DNA from: an uncultured Gammaproteobacteria bacterium
GTDB taxonomy: Bacteria > Pseudomonadota > Gammaproteobacteria > GCA-001735895
Length of the DNA stretch: 64,000 nt
Assembly: GCA_947259485.1 (NCBI GenBank)
Contig: CAMYLU010000002.1
Location: forward strand, 71,841-135,840
Direction of reading: 5' to 3'
The translations under genes were made by a program, and so were the position numbers. The notes beneath the pieces are model-generated. The model did no database searches and was not told the origin of the DNA. It worked only from the letters and a program-made list of their open reading frames with translations. This document shows, one piece after another, positions 2,239-53,155 of the stretch (positions within the stretch are counted from its first letter, which is position 1; every line of letters starts with the position of its first letter).

Positions 2239-3311
2239 GCGATCTGGAAACCTGGATGGCACCTTATCTCGAGGTGTTTGGCGATCATCCCTGGCTCAAG
2301 GCCGTGACAGTTGTCTTTGTCTTTCTCATTCTTGCCTGGATTTTCGACCATGTGATTATCGCCACGCTTAAACGACTTTCGGCGCGCACCCGTTTTACGC
2401 TTTATGACCAAATAATCAATAACTTGCACAAACCGATCCATGTCAGCGTGATACTGATCGGTTTGGCTCTTGCGGTCAACCTGCTGGCGCTCGAGGCTCC
2501 GTTGGCGGCCATCATTTATTCCAGCATTAAAACCATCGCATTTATCATCTGGAGCGTGTTTCTGATCCGGGTGGTGCGATCCACATTGCGAGCTGTCGCG
2601 GCCAGCGAAAAACGCGTCTCGATTTTGCATTCCCAAACCCTGCCGCTGTTTGAAAATATCGCCCTGATCATCATCGTCGTGCTTGCGGTGTATGTCATAT
2701 TCTCGGCCTGGAACATCGACATGACCGCGTGGCTGGCATCGGCCGGCATCGTCGGCATCGCCGTTGGTTTCGCCGCCAAGGACACCCTCGCCAACCTGTT
2801 TTCAGGGGTATTTATCATGGCTGACGCGCCTTACAAAATTGGCGATTTCGTGGTTCTGGAGACCGGCGAGCGAGGTGAGATTACCCATATCGGAATTCGC
2901 AGCACGCGCATGAGAACCCGCGACGATATCGAAATTACGGTGCCTAATTCGGTCATGGGCAATACCATGATTATCAACGAATCCGGCGGTCCCCATGAGA
3001 AATATCGAATCCGGGTCGCGGTCGGTGTTGCCTACGGATCCGATATCGACAAGGTGCGCGACATCCTGATGGACATTGCACTGAGCGACGAGGGGGTCTG
3101 TGAGGACCCGGAACCCAGGGTTCGATTCCGCGCTTTCGGCCCTTCCAGCCTCGATTTCGAGTTACTCTGCTGGATCGAGCAACCGGTATTGCGCGGCCGC
3201 GTACTCGACATCTTAAACAGTAAGGTTTACAAGCGCTTTATCGAAGAAAAGATCGAGATTCCCTACTCCAAGCACGACCTGTACATCAAGCAAATGCCGT
3301 CAGAGGAATAA
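2232..3311 (+). CDS. Small-conductance mechanosensitive channel (MscS family).
   Basis: N-terminal transmembrane helices followed by the MscS beta-domain region ('...[17 protein letters not shown]...[18 protein letters not shown]...'). The start may be the internal Met at 2256. Confidence 0.8.
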
Positions 3312-3314
3312 CCG

Positions 3315-3515
3315 TCACCCCGACCCGCCGCTGATCAACTTAGACAGAATAAGCAAAAGACCCAGCACGATAAAGGCCGCGGCGATCACCGCCAGGCGGG
3401 CTACCGGTTCGGAAAATGCAATACGAGCGAGTACCGGGTTCTCGAGCCGGTCCTTTAGCCAGAACAGGCCGAGTATCGTCGATAACAGGGCAACGCCGGC
3501 CAGCAAAAAGTACAT
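3315..3515 (-). CDS. Small hypothetical membrane protein, 66 aa with two predicted TM helices.
   Basis: ORF lies between convergent gene ends. It is hydrophobic and there is no homology I can recall. Confidence 0.3.
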   Translation of the reverse strand: MYFLLAGVALLSTILGLFWLKDRLENPVLARIAFSEPVARLAVIAAAFIVLGLLLILSKLISGGSG

Positions 3516-3555: not shown

Positions 3556-4908
3556 TTACTCTCCAAACACATCGACAACGGCATTGCGTACGCCGGCCAC
3601 CAGCTCATCGAGGGTGGCTTCGTCGGTGGTCAGCGGTGGCGCGATGCAGACCACTTCGCTGCGCATACGCGTAAACACGCCGTGATTGATCATTGCCCCG
3701 GTCATCTTCGGGCCGACGCCCCACTCGGGCGGATACCATGATTTGTTCGCCTTGTCTTCGACCAGTTCGACAGCACACATCATGCCCTTACCGCGCACAT
3801 TACCGACATGCGGATGTCCATCCAGCTCGTCGTGTAACTTCTCCAGCAAATACTCGCCTTTGCTGGCCGCCTGCCCTGGCAGGTCATGTTTTTCAATAAA
3901 GTCGAGTGTTGCCAGCCCGACTGCACAGGTAGTTGGATGGCCGCTGTAGGTATAGGCGTGCATCCACGGCTTGTCGCTACTGCGAATAGTTTCGGCAATT
4001 TCATCACTGATACCGATGCCGCCGAGCGGTAAATAGCCGGAGGTAATCGATTTGGCGAACTGTACCAGGTCGGGTTGCACGCCCCAGTGGTCAAGCGCGA
4101 ACATCTTTCCGGTTCGTCCAAAGGCGGTTATGACTTCATCGGCGACGAAAAGCACTTCGTACTTATCGCAAATTTCTCGAATGCGCGGAAAATAGTCGTC
4201 CGGCGGCACGATAACGCCACCGGCACCCTGCACCGGTTCGGCAATAAACATTGCCACGGTTTCAGGTCCCTGCGCGAGGATTTCCTTTTCCAATTCATTG
4301 GCCGCGGCGATTCCCAGCGAAGAACCGTCTTCCGGCACTGGGTAATGATAGGGATCGGGCGCCGGAATATGGCTGAAACCCGGAATCCGGGGCTCGAAAG
4401 AGGGCCAATAACCGGCTATCCCGGTGGCGCACATCGCCGCGAAGGTTACCCCGTGATAACCCCAGATTCGACTGATTACCTTGGTCTTTTCCGGTTTGCC
4501 TTTGGCCTTCCAGTAATATCGCGCAAGCTTGAAATTACTATCGGTGGATTCCCCACCGCCGGAGGTGAAATAGAAATTATTGATTTGCGGATAACACATG
4601 GCAGCAAGCCGGTCGGCAAGTTCGATCGCGGGAGGATTTGAACTACCGTTGTAGCTTGAGCAAAATGCCATCTCCCGCATCTGCTGCGATGCAGCGTCCG
4701 CCAGTTCCTCGCGGCCGTGGCCGCAGCTAACATTCCACAGGCAGGACAGGCCGTCGATGAAACGATTGCCGTCAGCATCGATCAGGTGAGACCCCTCGGC
4801 CTTCACCCAAACCCGTCCACCGGCATGCGCAGGGTTGTGATGCAGCGGATGAATCATATGCTCCTGATCTTTTTCGATAAAGGCACTATTACTGAGTGGG
4901 GCATTCAT
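3556..4908 (-). CDS. Class III (omega) aminotransferase, PLP-dependent.
   Basis: 450 aa. Motifs '...LFVADEVITAFGRTGKMFA...QPDLVQFAKSITSGYLPLGG' are diagnostic of aminotransferase class III. Confidence 0.85.
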   Translation of the reverse strand: MNAPLSNSAFIEKDQEHMIHPLHHNPAHAGGRVWVKAEGSHLIDADGNRFIDGLSCLWNVSCGHGREELADAASQQMREMAFCSSYNGSSNPPAIELADRLAAMCYPQINNFYFTSGGGESTDSNFKLARYYWKAKGKPEKTKVISRIWGYHGVTFAAMCATGIAGYWPSFEPRIPGFSHIPAPDPYHYPVPEDGSSLGIAAANELEKEILAQGPETVAMFIAEPVQGAGGVIVPPDDYFPRIREICDKYEVLFVADEVITAFGRTGKMFALDHWGVQPDLVQFAKSITSGYLPLGGIGISDEIAETIRSSDKPWMHAYTYSGHPTTCAVGLATLDFIEKHDLPGQAASKGEYLLEKLHDELDGHPHVGNVRGKGMMCAVELVEDKANKSWYPPEWGVGPKMTGAMINHGVFTRMRSEVVCIAPPLTTDEATLDELVAGVRNAVVDVFGE

Positions 4909-5167
4909 AGGATTAGTCTCTTTGCGGAATTAAACTCGACGACGCCCTGGGGACGCAACGAGAACTGTATTATAGGGGTTCGCCAGATTGATGGAACCCG
5001 CTTTGAAGGATTACTACAAGAAATTTTAGCGAGATATACCGACAGCCCACACCGCGACGATTTTTTCTCCTGGATTACCGTTAATCGTGGAACACTTTGC
5101 TGGACACGATACTGTCGCACATCCTGCTACCACGGACCTGGCAATGAAGTACCGGGAACACCCAGGC

Positions 5168-5560: not shown

Positions 5561-5958
5561 GATTCAGGTCCCGTGTAACATGCGTATTTCCAGGTTTGCG
5601 CCGAAAAAGACTTTCCCGCTTTCGAGCTTATCTCACCCGGGGGAACCAGGTCCATGACTCGATACCAGGCTTTTGTACCGCCATATTATACGTCCAGGCG
5701 GCAGATTTGGATTTTTCCGTCGGACCGATTTCAAGGATTGCCCTGGCCGAACATAGCAAGCCTGCCCGTAAATCAACGCGTTCAGATCCCAGGTTTTGTG
5801 CTTCAGAATCGGGTAACAAGAAGTTGGAAAGTGTTACCCGGCTTTCGTCTTGTCGCTTGAACCCTGCCCTGTATCTATTTACAGTGAGCGGAATATGGCA
5901 AGCCTGGCTGGCATGACAAAACATCAACAGGCATACGAAACGGTGTTTTTATAACCCA

Positions 5959-13946: not shown

Positions 13947-14009
13947 CACGTCAATCCCGGTTCCCTCCCAGCGCTCCTATTGTAATCCAGTTGTCGGCAC
14001 GAGCAGCGG

Positions 14010-14060
14010 GATCATTTTGCGGGATCGCCGTAAATACATCCCCATGCCTGCGCCGTTGGC
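14010..14060. repeat. Partial, degenerate copy of repeat module A.
   Basis: 'ttttgcgggatcgccgtaaatacatcc' matches the module A core plus part of one arm. It sits between convergent psd and epmA. Confidence 0.45.
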
Positions 14061-23594: not shown

Positions 23595-23712
23595 TTCGTA
23601 TCAACCAGGACTACAGCAGTCTAAATCTGGTAAACGGCGCAGCCATCCGCACGTCTTCGAGAAAATCGCGTACTACTTTTTACGACCGCGGCATCGATCC
23701 GTCAGTTAGCTC

Positions 23713-23824
23713 GGGTAATAGCCGCAAAAGACGCTCCCAACCGGCGCAAGCGCCGGTTGGTCCATCCATGGAATCGCTTGGAGCTCGGCATCCATGCCTC
23801 GCTACACTTTTGCGGTAATTCCCC
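23713..23824. repeat. Repeat module B, copy 1. Conserved core includes the 24-bp palindrome 'ccaaccggcgcaagcgccggttgg', nested in an imperfect 18-bp inverted repeat.
   Basis: Reverse-complement match to 30845-30973 over about 65 bp. Confidence 0.6.
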
Positions 23825-23890
23825 AAACTAACTGACTATCAAGTTGCATCCTTTCAACCGTGACGGCTGGCAATCGATGAGGCGTGGGCG

Positions 23891-23981
23891 TCGGAATCTA
23901 TTTGCGGGACGCTGCGCGACAGGGACGTCGCGCGCGAGCCTACATGGATGTATTTACGGCGATCCCGCAAATAGATTCCGA
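23891..23981. repeat. Repeat module A, copy 1. A 52-bp conserved core nested in a perfect 19-bp inverted repeat 'tcggaatctatttgcggga'.
   Basis: Core matches the reverse complement of 30696-30747 with 2 mismatches. The flanking arms have entirely different sequence but are still a perfect palindrome. Confidence 0.6.
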
Positions 23982-24007
23982 CGACCGCGCCGCTCACGAA
24001 TATTTGG

Positions 24008-24978: not shown

Positions 24979-25464
24979 TTACTTTTTCTTCCTGGGTTTT
25001 GCCGACCTGGCAGCAGCCGAGTTAGCTTTCCTGTCCCATCCACTAACAAAGCGTGCAATAGCTGCACCCCGTTTTGCGGATAGTTTACCCAGTGCATCCG
25101 CGCGTCTATTGGCGGCACGAACTTCATTTTTCAACCCAGCAACCTGCTTTTGCAATGCTTTTACCTTGGCATTAGCAGCTGAACTGGCTGAAGACTTCTT
25201 TTTAGCTGCGGGCCGTTTCCTGGCTGCTGGCCTGGCCGCTTTCTTTTTGACCGCGGGCCGAGTTGCTTTTCTCTTGGCTGCCGGTCGGGTTGCTTTTTTC
25301 TTGGCCGCAACTTTTCTTTTAGCTGCGGGTCTTTTCGCTACTTTTCTTTTAGCCGCGGGTCTTTTAGCTACTTTCTTTTTTACTGCAGGCTTGCGAGCCT
25401 TTTTCCTTACTGCGGGTTTTCTAGCTTTTGGTTTCGGCTTTGCTGCTTTCTTTGCTGTCGCCAT
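24979..25464 (-). CDS. Lys/Ala-rich histone H1-like (AlgP/Hc1-type) DNA-binding protein.
   Basis: 161 aa. N-terminal two-thirds consists of KRPAAKRKVA-type repeats. C-terminal helical region follows. Confidence 0.7.
   Translation of the reverse strand: MATAKKAAKPKPKARKPAVRKKARKPAVKKKVAKRPAAKRKVAKRPAAKRKVAAKKKATRPAAKRKATRPAVKKKAARPAARKRPAAKKKSSASSAANAKVKALQKQVAGLKNEVRAANRRADALGKLSAKRGAAIARFVSGWDRKANSAAARSAKPRKKK
25195..25445. repeat. Imperfect tandem DNA repeats (27-30 bp units) encoding the KPAA-type protein repeats.
   Basis: For example 'acttttcttttagc(t/c)gcgggtctttt(c/a)gct' occurs twice. Confidence 0.55.
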
Positions 25465-30636: not shown

Positions 30637-30676
30637 GACTCCTCCCTCAATAAAGTCCCAGTAAGGGCATGCCGAT

Positions 30677-30765
30677 CAGGATGTCTTTTCAGAAACGCCG
30701 TAAATACGTCCATGTAGGCTCGCGCGCGACATCCCTGTCGCGCAGCGTTCTGAAAAGACATCCTG
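30677..30765. repeat. Repeat module A, copy 2. Same 52-bp core in inverted orientation, nested in a different perfect 18-bp inverted repeat 'caggatgtcttttcagaa'.
   Basis: See copy 1. Confidence 0.6.
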
Positions 30766-30844
30766 ACCGCCACGCCCGTTAAGGTATTCGTTACTTTCAG
30801 GAAGTAATCCTCAAAAGTTAAGTTGACAAGCAATTATTAAAGAA

Positions 30845-30973
30845 GCTGCTTTGGGGGAAAGACTGCAAAAGTGTAGCGAGGCAGGACGCCGAGCTCCAAG
30901 CGATTCCATGGATGGACCAAACGGCGCTTGCGCCGTTTGAGAGCGCCTTTTGCAGACTTTCCCCCAAAGCAGC
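30845..30973. repeat. Repeat module B, copy 2. Core palindrome 'caaacggcgcaagcgccgtttg', nested in a perfect 27-bp inverted repeat 'gctgctttgggggaaagactgcaaaag'.
   Basis: See copy 1. The central palindrome carries a compensatory a/c and t/g change relative to copy 1. Confidence 0.6.
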
Positions 30974-31012
30974 GTGGTAATAGAAACAGTGCATTTTTGA
31001 AGGGGGGCACGG

Positions 31013-31018
31013 TATAAT
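31013..31018 (+). promoter_or_regulatory. Candidate -10 hexamer 'tataat' for valS, 30 bp upstream of the start. No convincing -35.
   Basis: Read from sequence. Confidence 0.3.
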
Positions 31019-31047
31019 CGCGCCCTTTGATTTGCGCCACCGAGTTG

Positions 31048-33816
31048 ATGGAAAAAACCTACGACCCACATTCAATAGAAGAAACCTGGTACCAACGTTG
31101 GGAAGATAAGGGTTACTTCGCTGCCGACGGAGACGGTGATCCCTACTGCATCGTGATCCCGCCACCCAACGTGACTGGCAGTCTACATATGGGTCACGCC
31201 TTCCAGGACACGATCATGGATACGCTGATCCGCTATCACCGCATGAAGGGCAACAATACCCTGTGGCAACCGGGTACGGATCACGCCGGTATCGCGACGC
31301 AAATGGTGGTCGAACGGCAATTGGTGCAAGAAGGCAAGACCCGGCATGACCTGGGTCGTGACGCGTTCACTGATCGCGTGTGGAAATGGAAAGCGGAATC
31401 CGGCGGCACAATTACGCGCCAGTTGCGACGCATGGGTGCGTCACCCGACTGGGCACGCGAACGTTTCACCATGGATGAAGGACTGTCGGCCGCGGTGCAA
31501 AAAGTTTTTATCGAGCTTTACGAGGATGACCTGATTTATAGGGGTAAGCGACTGGTAAACTGGGATCCGGTACTGCATACCGCCATCTCTGATATCGAAG
31601 TCATCAACGAGGAAGAGAAAGGGTTTCTGTATCATGTCCGCTACCCGCTGGTCGACGGACCCATCAACGGTGTCACCCATCTTGAAATCGCGACCACGAG
31701 ACCCGAGACCATTCTTGCCGATGGCGCACTCGCGGTCAGCGCTGATGACGAGCGTTACCAGGATTTTGTGGGTCAAAAAGTACAGGTACCGATGACTACC
31801 CGAATCATCCCGATCATCATTGACGACTATGTGGATCCGGAGTTTGGCACCGGTTGCGTCAAGATTACGCCAGCGCATGACTTCAACGATTACGAGGTAG
31901 GCCAACGCCACGAGATGGAGGTGATCAACCTGTTCACCATCGACGCAATCATGAACGAAAACGCGCCATCGGCTTACCAGGGAATGGATCGCTTCAAGGC
32001 CCGCGACAAGATCGTAAAGGACCTCGAAAAAGCAGGACTGATGGTCAAAATTGAAGACCACGTCTACAAACGCCCATACGGTGATCGATCCGGTGTCGTC
32101 ATCGAACCCTACCTGACTGACCAATGGTTCGTGCGCGCTGCACCGCTGGCAAAACCGTCTATTGAAGCCGTCAAGGACGGGCGTATTCGATTCATTCCGG
32201 AGAACTGGAGCAAGACCTATTACAACTGGATGGAAGACATCCAGGACTGGTGCATCTCGCGCCAGATCTGGTGGGGCCACCGAATTCCCGCGTGGTACGA
32301 TAACTACGGCAACGTCTATGTCGCCACCGACATCGATGAGGTCCGCCACAAGTACGAGCTCGCCGACGATATCGAACTCACCCAGGACGAGGACGTTCTC
32401 GATACCTGGTTTTCATCGGCACTATGGCCGTTCAGCACGCTTGGCTGGCCCGATCGTGATGACCCGGCGTTAAAAACCTTTTACCCGACCAGCGTACTCG
32501 TTACCGGGTTCGACATCATCTTTTTCTGGGTCGCACGCATGATCATGTTCGGTCTCAAGTTTATGGATGAAGTGCCCTTTAGAGAAATTTACATGCACGG
32601 CCTGGTACGCGACGCCGAGGGCAACAAGATGTCAAAGTCCAAGGGTAATGTGCTCGATCCGCTGGACCTGATCGACGGCATTACGCTCGAAGACCTGTTG
32701 GCGAAGCGCACTACCGGGCTGATGCAACCCGAAATGGCACCGCGCATCGAAAAGGCCACTCGCAAACATTTTCCTGACGGCATTCCGGCCTATGGCACCG
32801 ATGCGCTGCGTTTTACCTTTACTGCGCTGGCTTCAACCGGGCGCGATATCCGTTTCGACCTGGGGCGCATTGAGGGATACCGTAATTTTTGTAACAAGCT
32901 ATGGAACGCAACACGCTACGTGCTGCAGAATACAGAAGGCGAGGACTGCACCGCGGGCACTCCAACACTGGCAGATCGATGGATCATCGCCCGCCTGCAG
33001 CAGGTCAGCGAGGGTATTGGCAAACACGTAGAAAATTATCGTTTCGATCACGTCGCGCGTGATTTGTATGAATTTGTCTGGAATGACTATTGCGACTGGT
33101 ACATCGAGCTATCCAAGCCGGTGCTCTATTCCGAGGATTACCCGGTCGGCGCAAAGAAAGCCGCGCGCCACACGCTGGTTACGGTGCTCGAAGCCATATT
33201 GCGCCTGTTACACCCGGTCATGCCCTACATCACCGAAGAACTGTGGCAACGTGTCGCACCGCTCGCATGGATTGAGGGTGAAACGATAATGCGCCGACCC
33301 TACCCCGAGGCCGACCCGGCACTAATTGATGAAGTGGCGCTGGCTGAACTGGAATGGGTAAAAACTTTTGTCATGGGCGTACGCCAGATTCGCTCCGAGA
33401 TGGATATAAAACCGGGCAAGCTGTTGCCGGTAATCTGTCACAATGGCGATCAACATGATCGACAAAGCATCGAAGCCAATCGTTCACTGCTGATGTCGTT
33501 GGCAAAGCTGGAATCCATTGACTGGCTGGAGCAGGATGCCCAGGCCCCGGAATCCGCCATTTCGCTGGTGGGAGAAATGCAACTATTGATTCCGCTCGCC
33601 GGACTGATCGATAAAAACTCCGAACTCCAGCGTTTACAACGGAATATTGAAAAACTGGAGCAGGATGCACAGCGTATCAACGCGAAGCTGGCGAACGAAA
33701 ATTTTGTCTCACGTGCCCCGGAAGACGTGGTCAACAAGGAAAAGAGTAAACTCGCAGATACCGAGTCGGCGCTTGGGAGCTTGCGCGCACAGGCGCAAAG
33801 GATAGCGGCAATATAA
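31048..33816 (+). CDS. valS: Valyl-tRNA synthetase.
   Basis: Start corrected to '[12 protein letters not shown]'. '[14 protein letters not shown]' is the HIGH motif and 'KMSKSKGN' is KMSKS. C-terminal coiled coil. Confidence 0.95.
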
Positions 33817-52805: not shown

Positions 52806-53148
<343 letters not shown>

Positions 53149-53155
53149 GGCGACA

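Follow-up and report, generated by a model that had tools for sequence, protein, structure and literature searches.

The window, by which we mean the whole stretch of 64,000 nucleotides that was analyzed, carries two long hairpins at each of two loci (23701-23991 and 30665-30973), and from one locus to the other the cores of these hairpins are near-identical while the arms are different but complementary. Locus 1 occupies the gap of the convergent genes trx-TPR and xerD, and locus 2 lies after the holC operon, upstream of a conserved valS promoter block. The 6.7-kb gene block between the loci (xerD, a lysine-rich ORF, an RDD protein, lptG, lptF, pepA, holC, and a 94-aa ORF) is a typical gammaproteobacterial housekeeping set and not cargo, and it is flanked by parE/trx-TPR and valS. 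A reading of the loci as integron, attC, or recombinase sites, prompted by the neighboring XerD, was dropped because the intervening 6.7 kb is this xerD-lptG-lptF-pepA-holC block. The 64-kb window contains no csrA. Elsewhere in the window, an ordinary bacterial RNase P RNA of class A (333 bits) lies at 52806-53149 on the minus strand, and an ORF at 24979-25464 (minus strand), which has no Pfam match, contains four imperfect 30-nt direct repeats at 25189-25365; read on the minus strand, these encode a K/R/A-rich decapeptide repeat (KRPAAKRKVA-like) that recalls histone-like or AlgP-type proteins. The parts of the two loci, together with the relic of a third, are as follows.

13995-14054: relic of a third locus (60 nt), an antisense-A outer arm and cgccgtaaataca fused to the sense-A 3' outer arm catccccatgcctgcgcc
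23701-23836, minus strand: module B copy 1 (arms 23701-23730 and 23807-23836; core 23731-23806); the core has three minus-strand hairpins, GGCAUGGAUGCC, UCCAUGGAUGGA, and a 24-nt GC-rich hairpin at 23737-23760
23837-23880: spacer of locus 1 (44 nt), separating the 5' ends of B (minus) and A (plus)
23881-23991, plus strand: module A copy 1 (arms 23881-23909 and 23963-23991)
23914-23933, plus strand: hairpin 1 of module A copy 1, loop AGGGAC
23934-23938, plus strand: linker GCGAG of module A copy 1
23939-23959, plus strand: conserved 21-mer of module A copy 1, with hairpin 2 (UACAUGGAUGUA)
30665-30777, minus strand: module A copy 2 (arms 30665-30694 and 30748-30777; core 30696-30747)
30778-30844: spacer of locus 2 (67 nt), holding a small palindrome, ttactttcaggaagtaa, at 30791-30807
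30845-30973, plus strand: module B copy 2 (arms 30845-30871 and 30947-30973, 26/27 paired; core 30872-30946)

A sequence-only reading of this DNA had placed core A at 23910-23961 and, as its reverse complement, at 30696-30747, and both the positions and the sequences were as described, with 50 of 52 bases the same. Core B likewise occurs in two copies, and each core pattern has exactly two matches in the window, compared with none expected from 100 shuffles. The perfect inverted repeats that had been reported around core A are present (19 bp, 23891-23909 with 23963-23981; 18 bp, 30677-30694 with 30748-30765), but they are only the inner portions of the real stems, which an inverted-repeat search extended to about 29-30 bp for A and to 27-30 bp for B; a few positions in them are mismatched or form G·U pairs. 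Contrary to the earlier view, the two A copies have related arms: aligned in register, they share the base at 10 of 17 inner positions, and the remaining seven carry compensating changes in the opposite arm. For B copy 2, the arm described as 27 bp perfect contains one A·A mismatch, a position at which the orthologues in two related loci (L125 and L126) are perfect. The compensatory change noted in the inner palindrome of B is real, the fifth pair being C-G, A-U, or G-C in three copies.

All four hairpins of the window are predicted to be very stable, with folding energies of -75 to -77 kcal/mol and z scores of -7.9 to -11.6. Module A copy 1 gave -76.0 kcal/mol (z -8.8) on the plus strand versus -71.1 on the minus strand, and module B copy 1 gave -75.5 kcal/mol on the minus strand versus -65.8 on the plus strand; the corresponding values were -76.7 kcal/mol (z -11.6) for A copy 2 and -74.8 kcal/mol (z -7.9) for B copy 2. 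Promoter and terminator scans of both loci returned nothing above the shuffle expectation and no U-tract, and no sigma-70-like promoter was predicted in the 44-nt spacer at 23837-23880. The small palindrome in the spacer of locus 2 forms a short hairpin with CAGGAA in its loop; it is kept in L125 and L126 and reads attactttcagg in L124.

The 21-mer of core A, CCTACATGGAYGTATTTACGG, was found at 119 or more loci across the Gammaproteobacteria in a one-genome-per-species collection. Among the matches listed, the carriers include Yersinia, Stenotrophomonas, Marinobacter, Methylotuvimicrobium, Idiomarina, Haliea, Cellvibrio, Chromatiaceae, and many MAGs, and the 21-mer is invariant from Enterobacterales to Xanthomonadales. 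The members share a common plan, in which a variable long arm is followed by a CGU junction, hairpin 1, a CGAG linker, the 21-mer, a second CGU, and the complementary arm. In hairpin 1 the stem varies across the family and the loop reads C-A-N-GGA-U-G. A covariance model built from family members (R1) returned 144 matches, with the Yersinia copies at about 75 bits. A few copies carry unexpected taxon labels (Nocardiopsis yanglingensis, L022; a Lentisphaeria MAG, L108; and two Klebsiella pneumoniae MAGs, L035 and L115); since the L022 copy has the Stenotrophomonas arm sequence, contaminated assemblies or misbinning seem likelier than genuine hosts. BLAST searches with module A gave no match in 5,426 Escherichia coli genomes, and among plasmids only two Yersinia plasmids were matched, so the plasmid matches provide no bridge to the TwoAYGGAY elements of Pseudomonas.

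Pairing statistics were obtained from 57 nonredundant copies, with G·U and A·C scored equally. In these copies the basal stem measures 28 bp at the median, and 92% of its pairs are Watson-Crick, although its arms share just 34% identity from copy to copy. There are 70 G·U pairs but only 4 A·C pairs (p about 1e-16), and 9 against 2 in the B arms, which indicates that one specific strand is the folded form. In a model-based alignment of the 144 matches, 91% of cells were paired compared with 57% after shuffling and about 41% when the partners were slid, and 1561 cells carried a double change compared with 492 expected. Covariation was seen in all 27 pairs (27/27) of the basal stem and hairpin 1, and hairpin 2 showed a few compensations. 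The fold is therefore real and strand-specific, and the proposal that a conserved core within private complementary stems is the covariation signature of a selected structure is borne out over more than 140 family members. Single-stranded DNA also tolerates G·T wobbles, and the strand asymmetry alone is thus no proof of an RNA.

Model R1 also clarified the relation of the two modules. It scored A copy 1 at 89.9 bits on the plus strand versus 22 on the minus strand, and A copy 2 at 90.6 bits on the minus strand versus 18.3 on the plus strand; it detected B as well, copy 1 at 16.8 bits (minus) and copy 2 at 10.8 bits (plus). B shares with A the GU junction, the CAUGGAUG hairpin, a CCAAGC linker, and the GCGU 3' junction, and has 41 nt where A has 19. 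In a permissive Rfam scan, RF01731 matched the plus strand of A copy 1, the minus strand of A copy 2, and in each case the opposite strand of the adjacent B, and each module folds better on the strand of its RF01731 match. Judged by these shared elements, B is homologous to A, though diverged from it, and lies on the other strand; the two are not the independent modules they had been taken for. Each locus is thus a divergent doublet, with B (minus) and then A (plus) or the mirror image. Across the family, 17 neighboring pairs within 500 bp are divergent, five convergent, and two tandem. At L089 (391-996, a Thalassolituus MAG), five elements with gaps of 31 and 42 nt alternate strictly in orientation and form an array, not a doublet. 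A small hairpin, GGTCCGACGCATCGG (CCGA, a 4-nt loop, and TCGG), is a recurrent insertion at varied positions in A- and B-type elements of different genomes (L127, about 3860-3880; L124, about 3850-3870; L046, about 5790-5810; L122, about 3300-3320).

The turnover of the elements was followed at the orthologous site of locus 2 in 80 holC loci from sediment metagenomes, with HolC identities of 99-64%. The spacer between the 94-aa ORF and valS measures 50-62 nt when it is empty and 390-405 nt when it holds the doublet, with intermediates present; among relatives, the holC-valS site may be empty, may hold the doublet in one or the other orientation, or may keep only decayed remains. L125 is colinear with the window and 97.5% identical to it. 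In L124 the flanks are 92-98% identical, and the doublet is inverted with just 71% identity. Only the outer arms of B are left in L127, and a fragment is kept in L138. At the site of the relic at 13995-14054, a sediment MAG that is 92% identical (L088, JARFPR01) has an intact A'/B/A cluster (4289-4663). The B-spacer-A unit was also found complete in several genomes, at 70-80% identity. No convincing target-site duplication was found, the empty sites coming from relatives too distant for junction alignment. The only candidate, the hexamer ATCGAT, occurs just left of B (23693-23698) and again left of A (23874-23879), bracketing B and the spacer; it could reflect a target duplication made when B inserted beside a resident A, or simple coincidence.

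Between orthologues, the spacer has diverged by 11-17%, the A arms by 5-18%, and the cores by 1-6%. The changes in the A arms are always compensated; in L125, for example, GGATG has become GTAAA and CATCC has become TTTAC. The idea that the arms evolve faster than neutral sequence was rejected, as their divergence is about that of the spacer. Resident cores evolve about three times more slowly than the adjacent spacer, which points to selection after insertion. A block reading agaaacagtgca...ggTATAAT (window 30982-31018, with TATAAT at 31013-31018) is conserved at every orthologous locus, whether filled or empty, and probably serves as the promoter of valS; since it lies downstream of the insertion in all of them, the doublet is outside the valS transcript. 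The start of valS is probably the ATG at 31048 (MEKTYDPH...) and not the TTG at 31027.

The hairpin loops of the element are candidate binding sites for CsrA. The CsrA consensus obtained by SELEX is RUACARGGAUGU, in which ACA and GGA are invariant and GGA is presented in a hairpin loop. The two A loops, CGACAGGGAYGU and CUACAUGGAYGU (ACAGGGAUGU and UACAUGGAUGU), fit this consensus and keep both ACA and GGA, and their GGA motifs start 23 nt apart. We take the A loops to fit the RsmE consensus, (A/U)CANGGANG(U/A), as well, and the gap of 20 nt between the GGA loops presumably falls within the bridging range of a CsrA dimer. In hairpin 2 the loop is AUGGAU or AUGGAC, while in hairpin 1 of the window copies it is AGGGAC or AGGGAU and so not AYGGAY; across the family hairpin 1 reads CAUGGAUG, CAGGGAUG, or CAAGGAUG, and the real motif is therefore ANGGAY. 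CsrA binding was proposed for TwoAYGGAY RNAs in 2014. Binding of CsrA by the elements of the window is plausible from these motif matches. With rough gene calls based on ORFs only, singleton elements were oriented without bias with respect to the upstream gene (27 versus 26), so read-through need not yield the sense strand, and with the same calls the downstream gene tended to converge on the element (34 versus 19).

Each locus is a divergent doublet of a repeat whose Yersinia members are the mobile YPAL/RU-2 elements, with a strand-specific clamp fold of the TwoAYGGAY type, and we consider it somewhat probable that these doublets have a docking function for CsrA/RsmA. The action as an RNA through CsrA is the best-supported reading of the conserved loops, the support coming from motif matches and from the literature on relatives. 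A basal clamp stem of about 30 bp, constrained in its pairing but not in its sequence, encloses two hairpins (A) or three (B), and we hypothesize that it lets the core fold independently in any context. The loops of the A and B hairpins read (A/U)CANGGANG(U/A). The element would be transcribed as part of neighboring transcripts, and the two GGA loops, about 20 nt apart, would dock a CsrA/RsmA dimer, so that the regulator may be titrated or brought to the host transcript. Because the two units lie on opposite strands, a transcript entering from whichever direction would, we infer, contain one sense copy. At the DNA level, the unit that is copied would be the whole hairpin and, in the clade of the window, the whole B-spacer-A. 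As copies age, their arms would drift with compensation and their cores would stay fixed until the interiors are finally deleted; the arms differ between the window copies because these are old and only pairing is constrained. Read in this way, repeats with private stems belong to a known family of mobile hairpins whose copies have aged, and no new category is needed.

The elements could alternatively be selfish DNA palindromes of the REP or REPIN type, in which the core hairpins are the single-stranded DNA site of a transposase (RAYT or IS200/IS605-like) and have no RNA or host function. The family is multicopy and intergenic, its inverted doublets resemble REPINs, its sites are present, absent, or decayed with mobility documented in Yersinia, and the lack of orientation bias relative to genes and the tolerance of single-stranded hairpins for G·T wobbles also fit this explanation; a preprint also reports REP arrays beside TwoAYGGAY in Pseudomonas. 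REPs, however, have conserved stems and are species-specific, whereas here the stems are free and the 21-mer keeps its sequence across orders among the matches listed. Together with the match of both loops to the CsrA consensus and the slow evolution of the resident cores, this makes a purely selfish palindrome unlikely in our view.

The long stem by itself could also act at transcript 3' ends, as a barrier to exonucleases, an mRNA stabilizer, or a terminator or insulator between operons, with the GGA loops being incidental. The positions of both loci, one in the convergent trx-TPR/xerD gap and the other between the holC operon and the valS promoter block, would suit such a role, as would the tendency of the downstream gene to converge on the element and the reported influence of YPAL on the stability of upstream transcripts. 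The absence of a U-tract and of any terminator call at the two loci argues against it, and it leaves unexplained why the loops and the 21-mer are near-invariant across orders and why the strands are asymmetric within doublets. We regard a function of the stem alone as quite unlikely.

The arms also bear on the suggestion of the sequence-only reading that a small element inserts into palindromes that already exist; in this explanation a small conserved core would enter unrelated palindromes, for instance terminator loops, and take its private stem from the target. The arms do differ between copies within one genome, but nonorthologous arms of the same clade align in register over about 30 bp, with conserved and covarying positions interspersed and with conservation ending abruptly past position 30 or so; close paralogues at different loci share their inner arms, the arms travel with the core in Yersinia and Stenotrophomonas, and no palindrome was seen at the empty orthologous sites. 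Homology of the arms in register means that the core did not enter palindromes already in place, and we give this explanation almost no weight. The mobile, clamp-folded doublet with putative CsrA/RsmA docking remains the reading that we favor, and the broader guess of a structured RNA or a REP-like repeat had been a fair one.

Among known elements, the Yersinia palindromic sequences YPAL/RU-2 (De Gregorio et al. 2006; Delihas 2007) are the closest in sequence, with 27 consecutive bases of core A (CGAGCCTACATGGATGTATTTACGGCG) equal to the printed RU-2 sequence (27/27 nt), and the Yersinia members of our family, recovered both by the 21-mer and by model R1, are YPAL/RU-2. Like the elements of the window, YPAL are multicopy, intergenic, long stem-loops with filled and empty sites. 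They are reported to have been recently mobile, with target duplications of 3-26 bp and a preference for sites at or beside dyad symmetry, to be cotranscribed with upstream genes, and to influence the stability of the upstream transcripts. Unlike the window copies, the approximately 60 copies in Y. pestis share one sequence of 167-168 bp, arms included, whereas here each nonorthologous copy has covarying arms of its own, A and B form a doublet, and a unit spans about 110-135 nt. The arms of the window elements cannot be aligned to the 168-bp YPAL consensus. The family had been called the opposite of a MITE, yet its Yersinia members are a classic MITE-like repeat.

The Rfam family Ysr224 (RF02770, Yersinia sRNA 224) covers the same Yersinia repeat but is modeled on the strand opposite to the one backed by the G·U pairs and the GGA loops. 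At L064 it scores 127.8 bits at 5022-5128 on the plus strand, compared with an element on the minus strand at 5052-5145; in the window it reaches 21-26 bits against a threshold of 70, antisense to the supported fold, and there are weak antisense matches elsewhere in the family. Ysr224 is the only annotation based on expression, and its strand is the opposite of that of the supported fold; the Rfam model may have been built antisense, or the L064 copy may be read through in antisense.

The TwoAYGGAY motif (RF01731; Weinberg 2010) is the best Rfam match on the correct strand. Its matches in the window (33.8 bits for A copy 2 and 26 bits for B copy 1, both minus) and elsewhere on the sense strand (36.2 bits at L088 and 28.6 bits at L038) lie below the gathering threshold of 43 bits. 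The Rfam and Infernal searches that the sequence-only reading had pointed to thus connected the window with TwoAYGGAY and, antisense, with Ysr224, although both matches were below threshold; at the gathering threshold, the window yielded only RNase P, and 18 related loci yielded no TwoAYGGAY calls. The likeness lies in a long and poorly conserved basal stem shared by two hairpins whose loops read A-N-GGA-Y, in the gammaproteobacterial range, in the variable copy number, and in the divergent doublets. The September 2026 Minerva preprint, which extends the motif, describes TwoAYGGAY in Pseudomonadota with elongated basal stems, extreme variation in copy number, 68% divergent doublets, an expansion termed mobile-element-like, and in Pseudomonas adjacent REP arrays, and makes no mention of YPAL, MITEs, Yersinia, or Ysr224. 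The count of 17 divergent pairs in the family, against five convergent and two tandem, agrees with the 68% reported, and both loci of the window are divergent. The extended model includes additional hairpins, a 3' pseudoknot, and 5' GMTBT repeats. In the elements described here, by contrast, hairpin 2 is short and is followed by a UUUACGG tail, the predicted fold of A shows none of the three extra hairpins described for Pseudomonas, the pseudoknot described there appears to be missing as well, and B carries a third, GC-rich hairpin.

Our analysis connects YPAL/RU-2, Ysr224, and the TwoAYGGAY-type fold, which had each been named on their own, and determines by statistics which strand is the functional one. 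It also shows that purifying selection maintains the cores of resident copies as their stems drift with compensation, and it sharpens the hypothesis of 2014 that such elements may be RNAs that bind CsrA/RsmA. As a tentative and more speculative proposal, the YPAL/RU-2 MITEs, Ysr224, and TwoAYGGAY might form one superfamily: a mobile element that carries as cargo a docking module for CsrA/RsmA, able to fold by itself and insulated by its clamp, and that lands in the 3' regions of arbitrary operons as doublets that can be read either way, rewiring or buffering the Csr regulon across the Gammaproteobacteria. If so, these sequences would be a transposable cis-regulatory RNA and not junk repeats.

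Two further classes are alike in parts. REP, BIME, and REPIN elements, which are linked to RAYT, are also short intergenic palindromic repeats that often form inverted doublets and vary in copy number, but REPs measure 20-40 nt, combine a conserved stem with a GTAG/CGTC tag at the end, and are specific to lineages, whereas the units here span 110-135 nt, with free stems (34% identical), no common tag, and loops conserved across orders. CsrB, CsrC, and RsmX/Y/Z likewise present ANGGA motifs in hairpin loops, with more than one site per molecule; they are, however, single-copy, promoter-driven sRNAs controlled by GacA/UvrY and carrying 5-22 sites, while the elements of the window are dispersed repeats with two to three sites each and no recognizable promoter. 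Taken together, these comparisons suggest that RF01731 under-calls the gammaproteobacterial members and that the Ysr224 model may sit on the wrong strand, and they identify the elements of the window not as a new kind of element but as a new member of the known YPAL/RU-2 family with a TwoAYGGAY-type fold.
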